A DNA stretch of 64,000 bases, taken from Chloroflexota bacterium. GTDB taxonomy: Bacteria; Chloroflexota; Limnocylindria; Limnocylindrales; CSP1-4. Made by a program: the position numbers and the translations under genes. The notes under the pieces were generated by a model. That model saw nothing but the letters and a program-made list of their open reading frames with translations, was not told the origin of the DNA and searched no databases. The stretch lies in NCBI GenBank assembly GCA_003158675.1, contig PMKN01000089.1, forward strand, positions 77,932-141,931, written 5' to 3'. This document shows, piece by piece, positions 2,694 through 12,684 of this stretch; positions within the stretch are counted from its first letter, which is position 1, and every line of letters begins with the position of its first letter.

Positions 2694-4112
2694 TTAGACC
2701 TCCCAGAGCCAGGACTCCACCACCCGGTCTCGGCCCGTGCGCTTGGCCGCGTAGAGAGCGCGATCGGCCCGCTCCACGATCTCCGATATGGGCTCGTCAG
2801 CCGTCTGGCCGCTGGCCACGCCCACCGATACCGTGACCCGATCCGTCACCCCGGCCTCGATCAGATTCGTATCCCGGACGCTCTGGCGAATCCGCTCTCC
2901 GACCTCGAGCGCCACGCCCGCAGAAGGGTTGCGGAGCAGGACCATGAACTCCTCGCCGCCATATCGAGCGGGAAGGTCCTCTTCCCGGACCGACACCTGG
3001 ATGGCGTTGGCAATCGCCCGTAGAACCTGGTCGCCGACGTGATGGCCGTACATGTCGTTCAAGCGCTTGAAGTGATCGACGTCCACTGCGAGGATTGCGG
3101 CCCTATCTGAGGCGCGCCGGCGGCTGGCCACCAGGGCGCAGTACTCGTCGAAGTAGCGCCGGTTCGGCAGCTGGGTGAGCTGGTCGGTTCGCGCCTCGGT
3201 CTCCGCCGCCTGGTGCGCGTAGACCCTGGCCAAGGCCGCGGTGGTCTCGACCGCCGCGCTGTTGAGCAGCCGGACGGTCGAATCGGTCCACGGGTCACTG
3301 GTCCGTCGCGACAGCACAATCGCGCCCACGATCGAATCGCCGTCCACAAGCGGGGCGGCCAGCGTGTTGCGCAAGCCGTACGCGTCGCGGAGGCGGTAAG
3401 CGATCTGGTCGGCCACGTCTCGGGCGTTGACTTTTGTGCTGACCTGACGGTCGATCCCAGCGACGGACGAACGAAGCAGCTGCGGGTCGTCGAAGGCGGA
3501 GTTGGCGTCCATCACGGCGGCGTCCGGGCGTCCGGTGGCTGCTGCGCCGTCGGCTTCGCGCCAGCGGTCGCCCGCTTCGGTAGGGGCAGCCCGCAACCTG
3601 CGCGTCTCGATGGGCTCCAGCTGCCGGATCGGCATGACCGTGTTCGAGGGCTGCGCGCCGGCCGTCATCGAGACGAAACTCACGTCCAGGACGCCACCGC
3701 CGGGTCGCATTTGCACTACGGCCACGTGGTCCGCGCCGGTCGCAGCGCCCAGCTCGTGGACGATTGCCTGGATCACGGCACCCGGCGAAACAGACCGCGA
3801 CAGCGCCTGGAGCAAGCGTCCGAAGCTTTGAGCCTCCGAATGGCGCCTTTCCACCAGGATGCCCGAAGCGCGGGCATTCATTACCGCCGAGGCGACGAGA
3901 AACGCCGTCGCAACCGCGAGCGCCAGGTCACCGAAGCCATTTCGACCCGCCACGAAACCCACGACCGCCTGCCCAACGAGCAGCGTGATCGCAATGCCGA
4001 GCAGGGTCCAGGTCAGGGCAATCGACTGGGGACCGAGTCTGGGCGATCGGCCATCGCCTTCGTAATGAATCGTCTGGCTCACGATGCAAGCATGCCTCAA
4101 AGGTGAGGTCAC
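2694..4112 (-). CDS. membrane-anchored GAF-GGDEF diguanylate cyclase
   Basis: 472 aa. N-terminal TM helices, a central GAF-like region, and a C-terminal GGDEF domain with intact active site RYGGEEF plus the I-site-like RxxD (DVDHFKRLND). Confidence 0.85.
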   Translation of the reverse strand: MTSPLRHACIVSQTIHYEGDGRSPRLGPQSIALTWTLLGIAITLLVGQAVVGFVAGRNGFGDLALAVATAFLVASAVMNARASGILVERRHSEAQSFGRLLQALSRSVSPGAVIQAIVHELGAATGADHVAVVQMRPGGGVLDVSFVSMTAGAQPSNTVMPIRQLEPIETRRLRAAPTEAGDRWREADGAAATGRPDAAVMDANSAFDDPQLLRSSVAGIDRQVSTKVNARDVADQIAYRLRDAYGLRNTLAAPLVDGDSIVGAIVLSRRTSDPWTDSTVRLLNSAAVETTAALARVYAHQAAETEARTDQLTQLPNRRYFDEYCALVASRRRASDRAAILAVDVDHFKRLNDMYGHHVGDQVLRAIANAIQVSVREEDLPARYGGEEFMVLLRNPSAGVALEVGERIRQSVRDTNLIEAGVTDRVTVSVGVASGQTADEPISEIVERADRALYAAKRTGRDRVVESWLWEV

Positions 4113-4423
4113 GAACCCGTCCTCACGTGAGTACGTGCAGACTAGCGCGAACCGTACTTCCGTTTTCGCCTCTCTCGCGTCGTTGACCGCGCCCGACCCG
4201 TCGGGCTACACTCCGGATGGTCTGGAGGGGCAATAAACCGTGCCTCCCGACCAGCATCACCCCGCTTTCGGAGGATCTCTCCCTCTGTGGAGACCGGACC
4301 AAGTACCCCCGGCGCGTTAGACGCCGACATCCGCTCAATGGTTCGCTCCGCCCTCTAAGGGGCTCGCGCCGCCGCAGGCGCGTGCCACCACGAGGCGGCG
4401 CGACCCCGCCGTCGAGGTGGCAG
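4113..4423 (+). promoter_or_regulatory. ~310-nt divergent intergenic/5' leader upstream of the MgtE-like/Nramp operon; possible structured leader
   Basis: Unusually long non-coding leader before a metal-transport operon. It contains an AGGTGAGG element followed by the inverted repeat GTGAGG...CCTCAC. No confident riboswitch assignment is possible by eye. Confidence 0.2.
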
Positions 4424-5701
4424 ATGCTCTATCTGAGCCAGGCGATTGGCCGACCCGTGCGTGACAAGCTGGGCGAGCCGATCGGGGCCGTCGCCGACCT
4501 GATCGTCGCCATCGGCGATCGCTATCCCCCGGTGACCGGCATCGTGGTCAAGACCAACGGCCGCGAAATCTTCCTCCACTGGCAGTCGGTGGGCTCCCTG
4601 GACGCCGGCGGCGCGACCCTGCGCACGACCGCCATCGATATCAGCAAGTTCCACCAGCGGCCCAACGAGATACGCCTCAAGCGCGACCTGATGGACCGCC
4701 AGATCGTGGACATCGACGGCCGCAAGGTCGTGCGCGTGAACGACCTGCGCCTCGACGAGGTCGAAGGCGCCCTCCACCTGGTGGCAGTGGACGTCGGCGC
4801 TTCGGGGCTGCTTCGCCGGCTCGGCATCGAAGGTCCGTGGCGGACCATCGCGCGGGGCTTTCGGCGCGGCGTGGCGGAACGCTACATCGACTGGGAGGAC
4901 GTCGATCCACTGGAGCGCACGATCGCCAGTGTCAAGCTCCGCGTACCCCACAAGGGTCTGGCGGAACTCCATCCCGCGGACCTGGCCACCATCATCGACC
5001 AGCTTGGGCGCGACGACCGCGTCGGCCTCATAACGTCGCTAGACGACGAGGCTGCCGCCGACGCCATCGGCGAGATGGAGCCCGAGACCCAGGTCGACAT
5101 CCTCGAGGACCTGGAGCCGGGTCGCGCGGCGGACATCCTCGAGGAGATGGACCCGGATGAGGCAGCAGACCTGGTCGCAGACCTGTCCGACGAGAGCCGG
5201 GTCGAGATCCTGGGCCTCATGGAGAAGGACGAAGCGGAAGAGGTCAAGGAGTTGATGACGTACGGCGAGGACACAGCCGGCGGCATCATGACCACGGAGT
5301 TCGTGGCCGTCCCGGCCAGCCTCACCGCGGGACAAACGATCGACCGATTGCGGGAACTCGAACCCGAGGCCGAGACGATCTACTACGTGTACGTCACCGA
5401 CGACGCGGGCAAGCTCGTCGGCGTCCTGTCGCTGCGGGACCTGATCGTCGCCAAGCCGGACACGTGTATCTCCACGTTCATGTTCGACGAGCCCGTGGCG
5501 GTCCACACCGATGCCAGCCAGGAGCAGGTGACCGATGCGGTGGCCCGGTACAACCTGCTGGCCCTGCCTGTCGTGGACGGCGAAGGCCACCTTGAAGGAA
5601 TCGTCACGGTCGACGACGCCATCGACACGCTCCTGCCCCAGCCGACCAAGCGCCACCTGCCCCGTCTCTTCGGCCGCGGCTCCGGATCTTCGGATCGATG
5701 A
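4424..5701 (+). CDS. soluble MgtE-like regulatory protein (PRC-barrel + MgtE N-domain + tandem CBS), no transmembrane domain
   Basis: ATG at 4424 preceded by GAGGTGG. It has an acidic MgtE_N helical region (DDEAAADAIGEMEPETQVDILEDLEP...) and a CBS pair (TTEFVAVPASLTAGQTIDRLRE...; VLSLRDLIVA...ALPVVDGEGHLEGIVTVDD). It ends without the MgtE membrane pore. Its stop overlaps the next start (ATGA at 5698-5701). Confidence 0.8.
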   Translation: MLYLSQAIGRPVRDKLGEPIGAVADLIVAIGDRYPPVTGIVVKTNGREIFLHWQSVGSLDAGGATLRTTAIDISKFHQRPNEIRLKRDLMDRQIVDIDGRKVVRVNDLRLDEVEGALHLVAVDVGASGLLRRLGIEGPWRTIARGFRRGVAERYIDWEDVDPLERTIASVKLRVPHKGLAELHPADLATIIDQLGRDDRVGLITSLDDEAAADAIGEMEPETQVDILEDLEPGRAADILEEMDPDEAADLVADLSDESRVEILGLMEKDEAEEVKELMTYGEDTAGGIMTTEFVAVPASLTAGQTIDRLRELEPEAETIYYVYVTDDAGKLVGVLSLRDLIVAKPDTCISTFMFDEPVAVHTDASQEQVTDAVARYNLLALPVVDGEGHLEGIVTVDDAIDTLLPQPTKRHLPRLFGRGSGSSDR

Positions 5702-6990
5702 AGGGGCCGAGCCTGTCCATAAGCCCGAGGGCTGCCAATCGGGTCCGCTTCGCCGCCATTCTGGGCGTCCTCGGTCCGGGCCTCGTGAGTGGCTTCGCCG
5801 ACAACGACGCCGGCGGTATTACCACCTACTCCGTTGCCGGCGTGAAGTACGGCTACGAGTTGCTATGGGTCCTGCTGGCCAGCCAGATCGTCCTCTTCTT
5901 CACTCAGGAAGTTGGGGCGCGGCTGGGGCTGGCCACCGGGCAGGGCCTCACCGGGCTTGTGCGCGAACGGTTCGGCGTGCGCTGGGTCACGTTTCTCACG
6001 ATCACCATGCTCATCGCCAACATCGGCTCGATCGTGGCCGAGTTCGCGGGCACCGCGGCTGCCCTGAGCCTGTTCGGTGTGGCGCCGGCAATCAGCGGTG
6101 TCATTGCGGCTACGGTCGTCATCCTGCTCATCACCCGCGGCAGCTTCAGCAAGGTCCAGTACCTGTTCGTTGCCGTGGGCATCGGCGTTTCACTCTCCTA
6201 CCTCGCGTCGGCGCTGATGTCACATCCGGATTGGGGCGCCGCCTTCCACTCGCTCGTGGTGCCCAGCGTGGCTCACAGCGGCTCCAGCACGGGCGCGTAC
6301 TGGCTGGCGGTGGTGGCGACGGTCGGCACCACGATTACTCCCTGGGGCCAGGCCTTCATCCAGTCCTATTGCGCGGACAAGCGCCTCGGGCCCGAGGATC
6401 TCGTCGGCGAACGTCTGGACGTTGGGCTCGGCGCTCTCCTCACGAATCTGATCGCCGCTTTCATCGTGATCGCGTGCGCCGCCGCCCTCTGGTCGAATCA
6501 CAAGGTGATCGACACGAACAGTCCACAGGCCGTGGCTGACATCGCCAAGGCTCTCGCGCCGCTCGCCGGCGAGGGAGCGAAGTACCTGTTTGCCATTGGC
6601 CTGCTCGCCGCCTCTTTCCTGGGACTGGGAGTTGTGCCGCTGACGAGTGCGTACGCCGCCTGCGAAGCGTTCGGATGGGAAACGGGGGTGGACTGGCGTT
6701 TCCGCGAGGCTCCCGCCTTCTACGGGCTGATCGTCTTCTTCATCGTCATCGCGGCGGTCTTCGTCCTGATCCCCGGGCTGCCGCTGGTTCAGGTGATGCT
6801 CATGGCCCAGGTCCTCAACGCGCTGCTTCTGCCGTTCGTCCTGGTATTCGTGATGCTCCTCGCGTCGGACAAGAAGCTGATGGGGCCGCTCGTAAGCGGG
6901 CGCCTCGTATCGGCGATCGGCTGGGCTGGGACCGTCCTGCTGGTGGTGCTGTCGCTGACCCTCGTGGCGAGTTCGTTCGTGGCGGTGTAG
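5698..6990 (+). CDS. Nramp-family divalent metal (Mn/Mg-type) transporter
   Basis: 430 aa polytopic membrane protein. It has an Nramp-like TM1 motif (GFADNDAGGITTYSVAGVKYGYELLWVLL) and is translationally coupled to the MgtE-like protein upstream. Confidence 0.75.
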   Translation: MKGPSLSISPRAANRVRFAAILGVLGPGLVSGFADNDAGGITTYSVAGVKYGYELLWVLLASQIVLFFTQEVGARLGLATGQGLTGLVRERFGVRWVTFLTITMLIANIGSIVAEFAGTAAALSLFGVAPAISGVIAATVVILLITRGSFSKVQYLFVAVGIGVSLSYLASALMSHPDWGAAFHSLVVPSVAHSGSSTGAYWLAVVATVGTTITPWGQAFIQSYCADKRLGPEDLVGERLDVGLGALLTNLIAAFIVIACAAALWSNHKVIDTNSPQAVADIAKALAPLAGEGAKYLFAIGLLAASFLGLGVVPLTSAYAACEAFGWETGVDWRFREAPAFYGLIVFFIVIAAVFVLIPGLPLVQVMLMAQVLNALLLPFVLVFVMLLASDKKLMGPLVSGRLVSAIGWAGTVLLVVLSLTLVASSFVAV

Positions 6991-7277
6991 GCGCCGCTCG
7001 TGCGGGCGGACGGCCCGCTTCGCAGGCATCCGCCCGCACGCTCGATGCCCCACGGCTAACATGAGGCGATGCCGCGTCTGATCCCGTGTGTCGTCGGCGC
7101 ACGACCCACTTCCATGAAGATGGCGCCGTCGCCGGACGCGTTTCGGCGGTGGCTCGGCCCATCCAGGCGGGGTGGTCTCCCGATCCATGCGCCCATTCCG
7201 CTCCCGTTCGAGGGCGCACCGCGTCCCTTGCGCGCCGTTCCCGAACCGACCGAACCATCGAACCGGAAGGAGAAAGG

Positions 7278-8624
7278 GTGAAGGACGACCGAAGCGTCGG
7301 TGTAATTGGCTTGGGCTATGTCGGGCTGCCGCTGGCGCTCGGATTCCAGGAAGCAGGGCTGACCGTTGTCGGCGTGGATGCAAGTCCGAGCCGCGTGGCC
7401 GAACTGAACGCCGGACACTCACCCATCGACGACGTCGACGACACGCGCCTGGCCGGCGCGCTCCAGGGCGGCATCAAGTTCATCGGCAACAGCGAGGCCC
7501 AGGGCCCGCTGACCGAGATCGACGCCATCGTGGTCTGCGTCCCTACCCCGATCACCCAGTCCAAGGATCCGGACCTGGCCCCGGTTCTCGCCTCTGCCCG
7601 GATGCTCAGCGGGTCGCTGCGAGCCGGTCAGCTGGTCGTACTCCAATCGACCACCTTCCCCGGAACCACGACAGGTCCATTTCGAGCTGAGCTAGAGCTG
7701 TCGGGCCTGGCCGCCGGCCGCGACTTCGACCTCGCTTTCGCCCCGGAGCGGATCAACCCGGGCGATCCATTGAGCGCCGGACGAGACGTCCCACGCCTGG
7801 TCGGTGGCTCGACGCCTCAAGCCACGCAACGCGCCAAGCGACTCTTCGAGAACATCAACAGGCGTGTGGTCCCACTCTCCTCGCCGGATGCCGCTGAGCT
7901 GGCGAAACTCCTGGAGAACGTCTTCCGAAGCGTCAACATCGCCTTCGTCAATCAACTCGCGCTCCTGTGCGAGCGGATGGGTCTCGATGTCTGGGAAGTC
8001 GTCGACGCCGCCGCGACCAAACCGTTCGGATTCATGGCATTCCGCCCCGGGCCTGGCGTAGGCGGCCATTGCATTCCGGTGGATCCCTACTACCTGGCCT
8101 GGCGTACCCGCGAGTTCGACTTCGTGGAGCGCTTCATCGAGCTGGCCGGCGACATCAACCTGGCCATGCCTCGTCACGTCGTGGAGCTCGCCATCGAGGC
8201 CCTCAACCGGCGAGGCAAGCCACTCATGGGAACTCGCGTCGGGGTCATGGGCGTGGCCTTCAAACCCGACGTTCAGGACGCCCGCAACGCGCCTGCAGCG
8301 AGCGTGATGACCATCCTGCGCCAGGGTGGCGCAGTCGTTTCATATCACGACCCGCACGTGCCCAAGTTCTGCGACACCGAGGGGGTGGAATACGCCTCCG
8401 TCCCGCTCGATCGGTTGCTCGGAGACTCCGCTCTGATCGTCGTCGTCACGGCGCACAAAGCTCACGACTGGGCGGACGTCTATGCGCGGGCGGACCTTGT
8501 CGTGGACACCGTCAACAGCTCGAGGGGCATGGTGCGAAGAGCGGACCAGGTATTGCGGCTCGGTGCCGGCTGGGCGGTTTCGGACGCGGCCGACGCGGCC
8601 ACGATCGATCGGCCTCCGGCTTAG
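7278..8624 (+). CDS. nucleotide-sugar 6-dehydrogenase (UDP-glucose/UDP-N-acetyl-hexosamine dehydrogenase family)
   Basis: GTG at 7278 after GGAGAAAGG; the track's 7086 start is an upstream in-frame extension. It has the N-terminal Rossmann motif VGVIGLGYVGLPLA and the catalytic-cysteine motif GPGVGGHCIPVDPYYL. Confidence 0.85.
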   Translation: MKDDRSVGVIGLGYVGLPLALGFQEAGLTVVGVDASPSRVAELNAGHSPIDDVDDTRLAGALQGGIKFIGNSEAQGPLTEIDAIVVCVPTPITQSKDPDLAPVLASARMLSGSLRAGQLVVLQSTTFPGTTTGPFRAELELSGLAAGRDFDLAFAPERINPGDPLSAGRDVPRLVGGSTPQATQRAKRLFENINRRVVPLSSPDAAELAKLLENVFRSVNIAFVNQLALLCERMGLDVWEVVDAAATKPFGFMAFRPGPGVGGHCIPVDPYYLAWRTREFDFVERFIELAGDINLAMPRHVVELAIEALNRRGKPLMGTRVGVMGVAFKPDVQDARNAPAASVMTILRQGGAVVSYHDPHVPKFCDTEGVEYASVPLDRLLGDSALIVVVTAHKAHDWADVYARADLVVDTVNSSRGMVRRADQVLRLGAGWAVSDAADAATIDRPPA

Positions 8625-9997
8625 CCGCCGGCGACTCCATCCAGCTCGCGGGCGAGCTCGCCGGCCAGGTTGATCCGGTCGAACCGACCGGCCGGGTCCG
8701 CCGGCGCGGGCGCAGGGGTGTGGTCCAGCAGCCGCTCCAGGGCATCGGCGACGCTGCCCGGCTCGACGTCCGCAGCAATGCCGGTCGGAAGGCTCTCCAC
8801 CAGCGCCCGTCCCTCGCCGCGCGGCATTACGGCCAGGATCGGGCGGTCGAACGCGAGGTACTCGCTCAGCTTTCCACCGACGAAGATCTCCGCTCCGGCT
8901 ATGTCCGGCATGAGCTGCAGCAGCGCGTCCGCACCGGCCATCCTGGCGAGAGCCTTCGACCGTGGCATGAAGCCTTCGAAGCCGATTACCCCGCCCAGAC
9001 GCTCCGGTGTGTCGAACTCGGCCGCCGCCCTTGCGTTGGCGTCGTTGACGCGGCCGACGAAGTCCACCCGGAGGCGCGCTCGAAGGTCCGGCCGGCGCGC
9101 GAGCAGGCGTTCGACCCCCAGAAGGAACGTCTCCAGCTCCTTGGGGCGGTACAGGCTGCCCGCGTAAAGAAGGTGGAAGCCGCCCGGCTGGGGCGGCGGC
9201 GCCGGTTCAACACCGATGAGGTCCGACCGGTCGTAACCGTTGGGGATGTGCACGAATTTGCCGGCCAGCTCCGGGTAGCGCTCCTCGAACTGGACCCGCA
9301 TCGCGTCCACGGCCACGATCACCCGATCAGCCCGGGTCACGATCCAGCGCTCCATTCGGCGCTGCAGCCAGCGCTTGGGACGTGACATCGGCGCGGCGAA
9401 GGCATTGCCGATCCACGGATCGCGGAAGTCCGCCACCCAGGGTTTGTGAATGCGGCGCCGGATCAGGCCGGCCGCCAGATGAGTGGAGATTGGCGCCGCG
9501 CTCGAGTAGATGACGTCGCACCCATTGCCCCTGCCGGCCCGAACGCCGGCGCGCAGCGCAAAAGGCATCCAGGCGACCGAGCCGTCTGGGAAGAGCAACA
9601 CCGCCCAAACGCGGTTCCACACGACCGAAAGCTTGCGCAGGACACGCAGCGGCACGCTGCCCCGGGCCGAACTGGCCGTGAGGTCGCCGGTCACGGCCGT
9701 CGAACCGGCTGAGCGGAGCGAGCCCGCCGAGGTCCCTGTGCGCCGACTGAGCAGCCTCGCGGCCACGCTGGGCAGGCGTCCCGGCTCGAGGCTTGCCGTG
9801 CGATGGACCTCCAGCCCGGGAGCGAGCGTCGCCAGGAGCGAAGGGTCGCGGACGGGGAAGGCTGGGTCTCGCGGCGCGACCACGACCGGCTCCCACCCCC
9901 AGCGCGGCAGGTAGGTGACGTACTTGAGCGTCCGCTGAACGCCCACGCCGCCGACAGGCGGGAAGAAATACGTCACCACGAGGACGCGGCGGTTCAC
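8621..9997 (-). CDS. glycosyltransferase family 4 (GT-B fold)
   Basis: The 808-aa track ORF is an over-extension. The real start is GTG 9997, overlapping the upstream stop as GTGA. N-terminus VVTYFFPPVGGVGVQR...; C-terminal GT4 nucleotide-binding half (FVGGKLSEYLAFDRPILAV...). Confidence 0.75.
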   Translation of the reverse strand: MNRRVLVVTYFFPPVGGVGVQRTLKYVTYLPRWGWEPVVVAPRDPAFPVRDPSLLATLAPGLEVHRTASLEPGRLPSVAARLLSRRTGTSAGSLRSAGSTAVTGDLTASSARGSVPLRVLRKLSVVWNRVWAVLLFPDGSVAWMPFALRAGVRAGRGNGCDVIYSSAAPISTHLAAGLIRRRIHKPWVADFRDPWIGNAFAAPMSRPKRWLQRRMERWIVTRADRVIVAVDAMRVQFEERYPELAGKFVHIPNGYDRSDLIGVEPAPPPQPGGFHLLYAGSLYRPKELETFLLGVERLLARRPDLRARLRVDFVGRVNDANARAAAEFDTPERLGGVIGFEGFMPRSKALARMAGADALLQLMPDIAGAEIFVGGKLSEYLAFDRPILAVMPRGEGRALVESLPTGIAADVEPGSVADALERLLDHTPAPAPADPAGRFDRINLAGELARELDGVAGG

Positions 9998-11367
9998 GTC
10001 GGAGTGCCAGCTTCGACACCCGACTTGCGGCGGCGGGCCTGTCGTGCCGCGCGTCGCACGCCTGCGGCCAGGGTGCGTGCCTCCTCGCGGCCCGGAACGA
10101 TCATCGAGAGGATCGAGTTCCTCGACAGGCGGCTCGAGGCGGACACGAGGATTGCCGCAGAGACGGTGTAGGAGATCAGTGACGCGATCGAGGCGCCCTC
10201 GATTCCCAGGCGGGGAATCAGAATCACGTTCGCGGCGATGTTCGCGGCAACCGCACTTGCCGAGCCCACGGAAACAAGACCGGGCCGGCCGCGCCCGGCA
10301 ATGTAGCTCGTCATCACCTTGGACAGGCTCAAGGACATGACTGCCGGGAGCAGGATGTAGAAGGCTGGCAGGCACTCGCTGAAGCCGGGCAGAACGAGAT
10401 GTATTCCAACCCAGGCGGCGGGGATCAAGGCGAGAGCGGCCAAGCCCGTGAGCAAGACGGTGAGTCGAGAGACGCGAGGAACGAGCTCGTCCGCGTCCTC
10501 CTTCGACAGACCGGCGATGCGTGGAAGGAAGATCATCGTCACAGAATCGGGAATGTAGAAGACCAGCTCCGCCATCGTCACGGCCATGCTGTAGAGGCCA
10601 AGCGCCCCGGCGTTTCCAACCAGGAGCACGGGCATCAGGATGACGTCGATTCGGTAGTTGAAATACCCGGTGACGCTCGCCGGGTAGATTCGGAATCCGT
10701 ATCCGGCCAGGCCGCGGAACGAAACACGCTTGCCTCCCGGCTCGCGCATGGCGAGCCGTCCGACGGCCACGACATCTGCGATGGCGAGCAGCCAGGTGAC
10801 GGCGACGCTCGAGACGACCGCACCCGGAACGCCCAAGCGGAAGACCGCGACCAGAATCGTCGAGAGCATGAATGTGATCAGACCCTGTCCGATCAAGATG
10901 GCGCTGTAGGTGCGAACCTGCTGGCGGCCGAAGAGGACGGCCATCCCGAAGCTCGACAGCAGGGCGGCCGGAATGACCAGCAGGACGATCCTGAGCTCGT
11001 CCGGATAGGCTTTGGCCGCGTCCGAGAAGATGGTCGTCTGCGTCCAAGGCAGCGAGAGCCAGAGGAGCGGAATCAGGATCGCGCTCAGGATCGCCGTGAA
11101 CGCGATCCCTGCGCCGAGAAGGCCACGCAGAGACGTGCCGCGGGCGCTGAAGTAGTTGATCGCGTTTGGCAGGCCGAAGACGCCGATGGCACCGAGGAGC
11201 CCCGGCACCAGCATGACGTTCACGTAGGCGCCCTTGCCCTCTTTGCCGAGGATTCGCGAGATGACGATCGTGGTGGCAAAGGCGAGCGCGAAGGCGACGA
11301 CCTTGGTCGAGAAGACGGCCGCGACTCTTCGGCCGAAGGTGCCGCTCTGACCCGATGAGGCTGTCAT
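9994..11367 (-). CDS. polysaccharide biosynthesis protein / Wzx-like (MOP superfamily) flippase
   Basis: ATG 11367 (MTASSGQSG...). About 12 TM helices with Polysacc_synt-type N-terminal motifs (KVVAFALAFATTIVISRILGKEGKGAYV). The upstream part of the track ORF is rejected. Confidence 0.7.
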   Translation of the reverse strand: MTASSGQSGTFGRRVAAVFSTKVVAFALAFATTIVISRILGKEGKGAYVNVMLVPGLLGAIGVFGLPNAINYFSARGTSLRGLLGAGIAFTAILSAILIPLLWLSLPWTQTTIFSDAAKAYPDELRIVLLVIPAALLSSFGMAVLFGRQQVRTYSAILIGQGLITFMLSTILVAVFRLGVPGAVVSSVAVTWLLAIADVVAVGRLAMREPGGKRVSFRGLAGYGFRIYPASVTGYFNYRIDVILMPVLLVGNAGALGLYSMAVTMAELVFYIPDSVTMIFLPRIAGLSKEDADELVPRVSRLTVLLTGLAALALIPAAWVGIHLVLPGFSECLPAFYILLPAVMSLSLSKVMTSYIAGRGRPGLVSVGSASAVAANIAANVILIPRLGIEGASIASLISYTVSAAILVSASSRLSRNSILSMIVPGREEARTLAAGVRRAARQARRRKSGVEAGTPT

Positions 11368-11380
11368 CGCCGCGAGTCTA

Positions 11381-12559
11381 TCAACCGCGCCGGGCGGAGA
11401 GCCGCCGGTACAGCGATTCGACGTTGGCAAGGCTCCTGGCCTGATCCGCCCGCGCCTCGACGATGGCGCGCGCCCGGCGGCCGACCTCGGCGCGCTCCTC
11501 CGGCGATCGGTTGAGAGCGCGAGCAAGCGCTGCGGCGGTGGCGTCCACGTCGTCGATCGGCACCAGTGCGGCAGGGTCGAGGTCCCACAGCCACTCGCGC
11601 ACGCTCGGCAGGTCGCCGGCGACGATCTGCCTCTCGCAGGCCATCGACTCGAGAATCGTCACGGCGGTCGAGTCCGACGCCGGGATCGAGACAACGACGT
11701 CGGCCAGCCGGTAGAAATCGACCATCTCCGAATGCGCGATCTCGGGCACGATCACCACCCGGTCCGCGATCCCCAGCGCCTCGACCCGCCCCTGAACCGC
11801 AGCCAGTTCGTCCGCCTGCGCGCGGTGGCGGGAGAGGACCACGGCCACATCCGGCGGCAGCTTTGCGACCGCCTCCACGACTATCTGATGACGGTATAGC
11901 GGCGTGATGTTGCGGGGCGAGAAGACGACTCGGCGTCCCTGCAGACCGAGGCTGGCACGCAGCTCCGCCGGCCCGGGTCCTGGCGTGAAGCGCGTGAGAT
12001 CCACCCCGAACTGGATCATCTCAGTCCGCTCCGGCCGGGCCCCGACCGCCAGCGCGGCCCGCAAGAGAGCGTCGGAGTTCACCATCACCATGTCGGCGGC
12101 CCTCAGGGTGACCCGCGCCACCAGCGCGGCGAGCCGCGACGTGCGTGGCGTGATGAACACGTCGGAGCCCCACAGCGTGGTCACGTAGGGATGAAAGCCC
12201 GACATCCAGGCATGGTAGCCGTGGACCGTCAGGTAGTGAGCGTTCAGCACGTCCGGCCGGACCCTGGCGAGGACCTGGCGCAGAGAACGCCGCGCCATCA
12301 ACACCCCGAGCGGTCGGAAGCGGCGGCTGGTGAAGGGCGCGAAACGCTCGATCGCGATTGCCTCGGGCAGGCCCGGCTCGATCTGCTTCCCGTCCGCGAC
12401 CAGCAGCGTCACGCAGTCCCCGCGCTCGGCCATGAACGTCACCCAGCGCCGGAAGTGGATGCTGTTGGGATCGCCGAGATAGGCGATGCGCAGCGGTTCG
12501 GGCGGCGCCGGCATCTCCGGCTGAGCCTCAGCCCGGGGCCTCGTCGGTAGGGGCGACAT
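11381..12559 (-). CDS. glycosyltransferase family 4
   Basis: GT-B fold; C-terminal E-x7-E-like region (VVSIPASDSTAVTILESMACERQIVAGDLPSVREW). Start assigned to the internal ATG (MSPLPTRP...). Confidence 0.7.
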   Translation of the reverse strand: MSPLPTRPRAEAQPEMPAPPEPLRIAYLGDPNSIHFRRWVTFMAERGDCVTLLVADGKQIEPGLPEAIAIERFAPFTSRRFRPLGVLMARRSLRQVLARVRPDVLNAHYLTVHGYHAWMSGFHPYVTTLWGSDVFITPRTSRLAALVARVTLRAADMVMVNSDALLRAALAVGARPERTEMIQFGVDLTRFTPGPGPAELRASLGLQGRRVVFSPRNITPLYRHQIVVEAVAKLPPDVAVVLSRHRAQADELAAVQGRVEALGIADRVVIVPEIAHSEMVDFYRLADVVVSIPASDSTAVTILESMACERQIVAGDLPSVREWLWDLDPAALVPIDDVDATAAALARALNRSPEERAEVGRRARAIVEARADQARSLANVESLYRRLSARRG

Positions 12560-12684
12560 CGCGGGCGATTGTAGCCGACGCCGATGACCTCCGCGGGCCC
12601 GCACAAGCCCAGCGCGACACCGTAGACTCCACCAGGACCCGGATCGAGCCCACGGCGGGCGGCGGGCGGCGCAGGAGAGGCTCC

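Follow-up and report, generated by a model that had tools for sequence, protein, structure and literature searches.

In a stretch of 64,000 nucleotides (nt) from contig PMKN01000089.1 of a Chloroflexota bacterium, hereafter called the window, a gene for a protein resembling the cytoplasmic part of the Mg2+ channel MgtE (gene 1) runs directly into a gene for a transporter of the Nramp family (gene 2), which raises the question of what this pair transports and how its expression is controlled. An earlier, sequence-only reading had taken the first protein for a soluble sensor that regulates the transporter in trans and had suspected a metal-sensing riboswitch in front of both genes. Our answer, to which we give a rough probability of 0.6, is that the locus is a magnesium-uptake operon, composed of an NRMT-type transporter and a soluble MgtE-type sensor, behind a new cis-regulatory RNA for Mg2+ homeostasis that acts on translation and whose ligand we infer. 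The window is GC-rich, and the genomes closest to it, which are metagenome-assembled, carry the label Candidatus Limnocylindrales/Limnocylindria (Chloroflexota, CSP1-4 lineage), a group of soil bacteria without cultured members.

The domain content of gene 1 was resolved by Pfam, a structure match and profile comparison (Table 1). Pfam matched a PRC domain at residues 2-66, MgtE_N at residues 182-283 (E 3.5e-27) and a CBS pair (E 8e-20), and among solved structures the closest is that of the cytosolic domain of T. thermophilus MgtE (2yvy; E 2.4e-48, residues 172-409). The plural "PRC-barrel-like segments" of the sequence-only reading was well chosen: a profile-profile comparison of residues 1-80 with residues 81-172, using 90 homologues, identified the latter segment as a second PRC-like barrel with an insertion (hhalign probability 94%, E 1e-7). 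The C-terminal five-helix membrane domain of MgtE (PF01769) had no Pfam match in gene 1, the protein stops about 20 residues past the CBS pair, and of the 450 positions in the NCBIfam mgtE model only 25-251 are aligned, with a score under the cut-off. Gene 1 is therefore predicted to be a soluble paralogue of the MgtE cytoplasmic module and not a channel, which bears out the proposal of a sensor protein without a membrane pore. A frameshift-hidden membrane domain was not found, the 3' flank coding for Nramp and not for MgtE helices.

In MgtE, the cytosolic N domain and the CBS pair bind Mg2+ (and ATP) and shut the pore. The corresponding structures from T. thermophilus (2YVY/2YVX/5X9G) align with gene 1 over about 240 residues, through the N domain and the CBS pair, whereas gene 1 has no plug helix or membrane domain, carries two extra PRC barrels and presumably has a LeuT-fold carrier, not its own pore, as its target. 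The start codon at 4424 is backed by GAGGTGGCA(C/G)ATG, which about 75 of 80 related loci retain. The PRC-PRC-MgtE_N-CBS form occurs widely, with at least 150 clusters at 50% identity aligning end to end and homologues of about 415-425 amino acids in hundreds of clusters, and across many Limnocylindria genomes gene 1 is 86-90% identical. When the same genome pairs were compared between the window and 35 close loci (L001-L035), identity was 86-90% for gene 1 and 72-76% for the transporter, which is unusual for an accessory subunit. Three proteins of about 595-600 amino acids (P0141, P0148 and P0164) are full-length MgtE channels with one or more PRC barrels, in the order PRC-MgtE_N-CBS-MgtE transmembrane domain (PF01769), indicating that the PRC extension either arose before the separation from the pore or has no connection with it.

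Gene 2 belongs to the Nramp family, as first assigned: Pfam Nramp (PF01566) matches at E 1.7e-84 over profile positions 1-355 of 357. Among solved structures, EleNRMT is the closest (7qia; E 1.6e-87, 297 bits, residues 18-424 aligned), and the MntH, DMT, NRAMP and NRAT chains reach 98 bits or less at E 1e-27 or worse (MntH about 6e-27). The NRMT binding-site signature was defined by Ramanadane et al. (2022, eLife; PMC8806188), and gene 2 shares with EleNRMT from Eggerthella lenta (7QIA/7QIC, PMC8806188) the DAGG on helix 1, the Thr at T224 and the Trp for the first helix-6b His. The DAGG of gene 2 replaces DPGN (Asn to Gly), and all related loci carry the NDAGG motif; in helix 6, T211 aligns with T224 of EleNRMT (Ala to Thr), a residue needed there for Mg2+ interaction (PMC8806188), the canonical Met is absent, and the replaced His belongs to the proton pathway. 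At the position of EleNRMT Ala227, gene 2 instead has Thr (T214), a variant (GTTITPW) that is invariant within the close Limnocylindria clade. Judged by these features, gene 2 is an NRMT/NrmT-type transporter from the Mg2+-transporting branch of SLC11/Nramp, with transport predicted. Since EleNRMT is an uncoupled carrier of Mn2+ as well as Mg2+ (PMC8806188), gene 2 would, by inference, be an uncoupled Mg2+/Mn2+ transporter of the same kind. Two NRMT subclades, about 45% identical, are marked by FADNDAGG...GTTITPW and AGNDAGG, respectively; either may follow gene 1 (L036-L080 included), and in one locus (L016, 5275-7903) both stand in tandem.

The names returned by Pfam and NCBIfam, which are only "Nramp"/"MntH" and "mgtE", would also suit an ordinary MntH-type Mn2+/Fe2+ importer beside an unrelated CBS protein, or a gene 1 that is a truncated or frameshifted mgtE pseudogene. 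This reading is already refuted by the sequence evidence, and we give it almost no weight, because gene 2 scores far under the cut-offs of NCBIfam MntH (129 vs 430) and TIGR nramp (TIGR01197; 88 vs 272) and has the canonical DPGN and Met motifs replaced, while gene 1 keeps its length across hundreds of clusters, its stop overlaps the next start in 35 loci, and its 3' flank is Nramp.

The ATGA overlap of the two genes, reported correctly by the sequence-only reading, is kept in L001-L035, and more distant loci have spacers of 40-240 nt instead. In Limnocylindria, an NRMT gene follows gene 1 in nearly all of the 80 genome loci, and likewise in the metagenome loci that are long enough. Two archaeal operons, from Methanobacterium (L211, 2520-5513) and Halobacteriota (L212, 2521-5514), combine an AsnC-type regulator, a PRC-MgtE_N-CBS protein and an Nramp-family gene; the pairing thus spans both prokaryotic domains, and regulation of the archaeal pairs is likely protein-based rather than RNA-based.

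The pairing, which the sequence-only reading took for a domain-shuffled combination of two metal-transport families, is already known. Shin et al. (2014, PLoS Genet; PMC4072509) reported that most nrmT genes adjoin a gene for an MgtE cytoplasmic domain and that the two are frequently transcribed together downstream of an M-box riboswitch; cytoplasmic feedback regulation by the MgtE-domain protein was their speculation, so the idea of regulation in trans repeats a published hypothesis. Those mgtE-fragment/nrmT operons resemble the present one in gene order, transporter clade, a long regulatory leader and the proposed feedback-sensor role. They differ in that their leader is an M-box with a transcription terminator, whereas the window has an unrelated RNA with a platform that sequesters the Shine-Dalgarno (SD) sequence; in that the partner in the window has two N-terminal PRC barrels, of which PMC4072509 makes no mention; and in that the genes in the window overlap by ATGA in a Chloroflexota (Limnocylindria) host, whereas the published operons are from Firmicutes or Acidobacteria. 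For EleNRMT, which was studied alone, no passage on a partner protein was found in PMC8806188. Within a known operon architecture, the PRC barrels of the partner and the Thr in the binding site amount to minor variations, and the gene pair by itself is one more Chloroflexota case of an Nramp-family Mg2+ carrier with a detached MgtE sensor module. To the published pairing it adds that the partner commonly has two PRC barrels, that it is more conserved than the transporter, and that the pairing occurs in bacteria and archaea.

We then ask what lies in front of gene 1. The interval of 310 nt, which the sequence-only reading had taken for the leader, is a divergent intergenic region beside a GAF-GGDEF gene and is not leader over its whole length. 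The position of a sigma-70-like promoter (Table 1), whose -35/-10 pair is found again in 60 of the 80 related loci, 200-257 nt before the ATG, implies a transcribed leader of about 205 nt. This leader is non-coding: leader lengths modulo 3 show no preference for any of the three classes, and in-frame stops are present in 48 of 63 leaders. For these reasons an in-frame ATG at 4217 was rejected as the start of an N-terminal extension or leader peptide. The element AGGTGAGG, earlier counted as part of the leader, sits at 4101-4108, in the first codons of the opposite-strand GGDEF open reading frame (ORF); it is upstream of the promoter, outside the transcript and outside the coordinates given for the leader, and was also rejected as an M-box remnant.

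No match to M-box (RF00380), yybP-ykoY (RF00080) or any other Rfam family was obtained with either 3.5 kb of the locus or the 236-nt leader at E up to 10, and no M-box or yybP-ykoY was found in the whole window at gathering score. The Rfam check recommended by the sequence-only reading was thus run and gave nothing for the two classes it had named; scans of the 3.5 kb, the 236 nt, the whole window and 10 related loci returned only chance miRNA-like matches and tRNAs. The searchable literature, whose coverage is incomplete and leaves an earlier description possible, contains no description of a Limnocylindria or Chloroflexi Mg2+ riboswitch. The leader RNA therefore appears to be undescribed as far as Rfam 15 and that literature show.

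The upstream regions of 78 loci were aligned, and their conservation at the DNA level was well above that expected from the divergence of the proteins, which are only about 70% identical. RNAalifold on MAFFT alignments gave a poor or odd consensus because the variable stems were misaligned, and a single-column covariation screen was swamped by GC-rich noise; both were replaced by averaged thermodynamic pair probabilities, from which helices P3, P4, P6, P7 and GCCACC/GGUGGC were recovered, and by realignment to a covariance model. This model, R1 (176 positions, 39 pairs), gives a single strong match in each of 76 of the 80 genome loci (36-172 bits), in every case immediately before gene 1. The match in the window is the only significant copy in 64 kb, and nothing better than E about 0.1 was found elsewhere in 706 kb. 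Metagenome contigs were scanned with an exact 18-base core pattern, which yielded more than 120 stretches; 80 of these loci were evaluated, and R1 matches 53 of them.

In the 73-sequence model alignment, 87.9% of the pair cells are canonical, compared with 82.3% in 500 shuffles, none of which attains the observed value, and the covariation score is 0.161, compared with 0.080 when shuffled and 0.03-0.06 with the partners slid by 1-3 columns. Changes on both sides occur in 21 pairs, counts that are biased towards the R1 structure since the alignment was fitted to R1, and they are concentrated in P4 (five of seven pairs), P6 (six of six) and P7 (helices 7-8; six of six). P3 is conserved with one-sided changes only, and the anti-SD/SD helix, which is nearly invariant, has 95.9% of its cells paired. 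The leader thus contains an RNA structure that is conserved and shows covariation, without relation to coding, and its expression platform overlaps the SD sequence.

From 5' to 3', the leader consists of a variable hairpin, the near-invariant blocks CGGAGGA, GUGGA, GGACCCAGU and GGUCCG, two variable hairpins, the GCCACC element, a GC-rich hairpin and GAGGUGGCA-N-AUG. The first hairpin, P0, shows compensatory differences among L001-L007 and is weaker or different in distant clades. The hairpin formed by GCCACC and the SD region has a mean thermodynamic pair probability of about 0.6, and no intrinsic terminator was found in the leader. The guess of a riboswitch in the leader had therefore pointed to a conserved structured RNA with an SD-sequestering helix, absent from Rfam 15, while its suggestion of a known class did not hold.

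The genes behind the motif bear on its function. In metagenome loci with enough downstream sequence, the motif stands directly before a homologue of gene 1 (L089 was left out), with the exception of L124 (72 bits; 9763-12569). There the SD-ATG of the motif opens a 26-codon ORF whose TGA overlaps the ATG of corA (TGATG), and corA (Pfam CorA E 1e-57) is followed by a canonical full-length mgtE. An independent contig found via the CorA protein, L201 (87.6 bits; 2706-5512), has the motif ATG 84 nt upstream of corA, forming a putative upstream ORF (uORF), again followed by a full-length mgtE. Both loci share the flanks of the window, with the GAF-GGDEF gene upstream and the lactamase_B-rhodanese and UDP-glucose dehydrogenase genes downstream. 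This is one syntenic locus, in which the same leader precedes gene 1 and NRMT, gene 1 alone (L049) or uORF-corA-mgtE, and the motif was found solely upstream of operons of these kinds. With L124 and L201, it precedes three of the four known Mg2+ importer classes.

The M-box (ykoK, RF00380) is likewise a large multi-helix RNA in the 5' leader of nrmT, corA and mgtE operons. It differs in that no covariance-model match to the window leader was obtained at E up to 10, in that the window has its own blocks (CGGAGGA, GUGGA, GGACCCAGU and GGUCCG), and in that the window leader is without a terminator. An M-box of M. tuberculosis is reported to control a small upstream ORF via a translational platform (PMC12810186), an arrangement that resembles the motif in L124 and L201.

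Because the genes behind the motif are Mg2+ importers or a sensor module, and because the same operon in clostridia lies behind an M-box, we propose that the leader couples translation to Mg2+ status. Both genes would be transcribed from the conserved promoter through the structured leader of ~205 nt, and the 5' multi-helix core would sense Mg2+, or a signal linked to it, and decide whether the SD hairpin forms. By analogy with other Mg2+ importers, when Mg2+ is sufficient, a compact core would leave GCCACC free to close over the SD sequence, turning translation off; when Mg2+ is limiting, the core would rearrange and free the SD sequence. The ATGA overlap, or TGATG after the uORF, would then hand ribosomes on to the transporter gene. 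Like the fused domain of MgtE, the gene 1 protein may respond to cytoplasmic Mg2+ (and possibly to ATP) and gate or tune the transporter accordingly. With an uncoupled Mg2+ carrier such as EleNRMT, a cytoplasmic Mg2+-sensing gate acting in trans would be a sensible safeguard, in keeping with the hypothesis of 2014. The ligand, the direction of the switch and the regulation of one protein by the other are put forward here as proposals. A more specific claim, which we advance tentatively and at rather less than even odds, is that the leader at 4219-4423 may be the first member of a new class of Mg2+-sensing riboswitches, unrelated to the M-box or the enterobacterial mgtA leader, which would control translation directly (gene 1 and NRMT) or via a coupled uORF (corA-mgtE) and replace the M-box in Limnocylindria.

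The SD hairpin is very stable and nearly invariant, and no alternative pairing that frees the SD sequence was identified, features that would also suit a conserved structured 5' untranslated region that is not a direct sensor. Such an RNA might be a protein operator (e.g. for autoregulation by gene 1), a target of a small RNA, or an RNA thermometer or stability element by which translation is held at a low level. Some proteins associated with RNA or with ribosomes contain PRC barrels, and the unusual conservation of gene 1 relative to the transporter points the same way. Against it, the motif is present in L124 and L201 without gene 1 in the operon, the core, which in ~100 nt combines multiple helices with several blocks that are single-stranded and invariant, exceeds what most protein operators or thermometers need, and the restriction to Mg2+-transporter operons mirrors the M-box. 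We consider a leader of this kind unlikely, though worth keeping in mind.

If the leader were a riboswitch that responds not to Mg2+ but, for example, to Mn2+, to an adenine nucleotide or to cyclic di-GMP (c-di-GMP) from the GAF-GGDEF neighbour, this would be in line with the Mn2+ transport by EleNRMT, with the Mn2+ defect rescued by the A. capsulatum homologue, and with the presence of the GGDEF gene upstream in the window, L001-L037, L124 and L201. However, the CorA and MgtE proteins encoded behind the motif are Mg2+ channels and not Mn2+ importers, the RNA has no similarity to yybP-ykoY or to c-di-GMP-I/II, and the motif is kept in distant clades where the GGDEF gene is not adjacent. The c-di-GMP-I/II classes themselves were rejected, as Rfam showed no similarity to them. 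We regard a different ligand as distinctly improbable.

Several observations weigh against the Mg2+-responsive operon that we favour. On the side of the proteins, T214 in place of Ala227 leaves the selectivity of gene 2 uncertain. In A. capsulatum, the sole published trial, co-expression of the partner had no effect, and the transporter preferred Mn2+ and rescued a Mn2+ defect (PMC4072509). On the side of the RNA, P3 and the anti-SD/SD helix, being near-invariant, are supported by conservation and energetics with almost no covariation, to which the bias of the pair counts mentioned above is added. Mutually exclusive helices fit the data equally well, namely the long-range P1 or a local P5, and P2 or P2' (GGAG/CUCC or CUCC/GGAG), and a search of the leader for an anti-anti-SD element or another pairing that frees the SD sequence gave none that was convincing. 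All instances of the RNA belong to a single bacterial class and a single syntenic locus; the two corA-mgtE cases could reflect gene replacement behind an inherited leader instead of independent recruitment, and CorA paralogues at other loci of related genomes (L202-L206) are without the motif.

The RNA classes with a known capacity to sense metal ions are few, and for Mg2+ it is difficult to tell sensing by an RNA apart from its general folding. If the Mg2+-sensing reading is true, an independent RNA before three Mg2+ importer classes would provide a second natural design to compare with the M-box, and it would add a translational switch of compact size, from an uncultured GC-rich lineage, of which over 120 natural variants are already available for biochemical work.

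Table 1. Coordinates of the features of the locus in the window. Paired segments of helices are separated by a slash.
Feature	Position	Strand	Basis or remark
GAF-GGDEF diguanylate cyclase gene	2694..4112	-	Divergent from operon; Pfam GGDEF E 8e-45, GAF E 2e-10
Sigma-70-like promoter, TTGACC-N18-TACACT	4183..4212	+	Promoter scan; predicted transcription start near 4219
5' hairpin P0, GGUCUGGAGG...CCUCCCGACC	4219..4252	+	Folding; sequence varies, stem kept in close relatives
R1 covariance-model match (core and expression platform)	4248..4426	+	136.2 bits, E 7e-28
Aptamer-like core	4262..4362	+	Invariant columns in two alignments
Possible closing helix P1	4262-4266/4358-4362	+	
Near-invariant core block CGGAGGA	4270-4276	+	
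Helix P2'	4279-4282/4289-4292	+	
Near-invariant core block GUGGA	4287-4291	+	
Helix P3, CGGACC/GGUCCG	4295-4300/4340-4345	+	
Near-invariant core block GGACC	4296-4300	+	
Helix P4	4310-4314/4322-4326	+	
Hairpin P6, CGCGCC...GGCGCG	4365..4382 (pairs 4365-4370/4377-4382)	+	Variable sequence and loop
SD-sequestering hairpin	4384..4421	+	Anti-SD GCCACC 4384-4389 pairs with GGUGGC 4416-4421
Stem P7, nested inside SD hairpin	4394-4398/4406-4410	+	
Shine-Dalgarno GAGGUGG	4414-4420	+	
Gene 1, predicted soluble PRC-PRC-MgtE_N-CBS-CBS protein, 425 amino acids	4424..5701	+	Pfam, structure match, profile comparison
Gene 1 domains	PRC1 4424-4663; PRC2 4664-4939; MgtE_N 4967-5272; CBS pair about 5285-5650	+	
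ATGA stop/start overlap, gene 1/gene 2	5698..5701	+	Direct read: GAT CGA TGA / ATG AAG
Gene 2, NRMT-type Nramp-related transporter (transport predicted), 430 amino acids	5698..6990	+	Pfam Nramp, EleNRMT match
Gene 2 transmembrane helix 1 motif D37-A-G-G40	5806-5817	+	
Gene 2 transmembrane helix 6 motif G-T211-T-I-T214-P-W216	6325-6345	+	
UDP-glucose/GDP-mannose dehydrogenase gene	7086..8624	+	Pfam; downstream marker of syntenic locus

The neighbouring genes place the operon in its syntenic context. The GAF-GGDEF gene is the upstream neighbour also in L001-L037, L124 and L201, the copy in L124 lying at 7371-9776 on the minus strand. In distant clades, where the GGDEF gene is not adjacent, the leader motif is still kept. 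A gene of the UDP-glucose dehydrogenase family is found downstream of the corA-mgtE variant in L201 as well. Beyond the GGDEF gene, an ORF of 618 amino acids on the minus strand (812-2668) presumably encodes a family X DNA polymerase with a PHP domain, which its sequence resembles, and several long minus-strand ORFs 3' of the operon (7086-12604) are taken by us, from their translations, to be glycosyltransferase or polysaccharide-export genes.

Outside the Limnocylindria locus, the PRC-MgtE_N-CBS genes of other Chloroflexota and of archaea (L207-L212) are without the motif. Those of L207-L210, from other Chloroflexota, are orphan genes with no adjacent transporter and an intergenic region of ~555 nt upstream of position 3001, and these upstream regions gave no match to R1 or to any Rfam family. 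Within the locus, L049 (4001-7120) has gene 1 behind the motif without a transporter gene, followed by a convergent lactamase_B-rhodanese gene.

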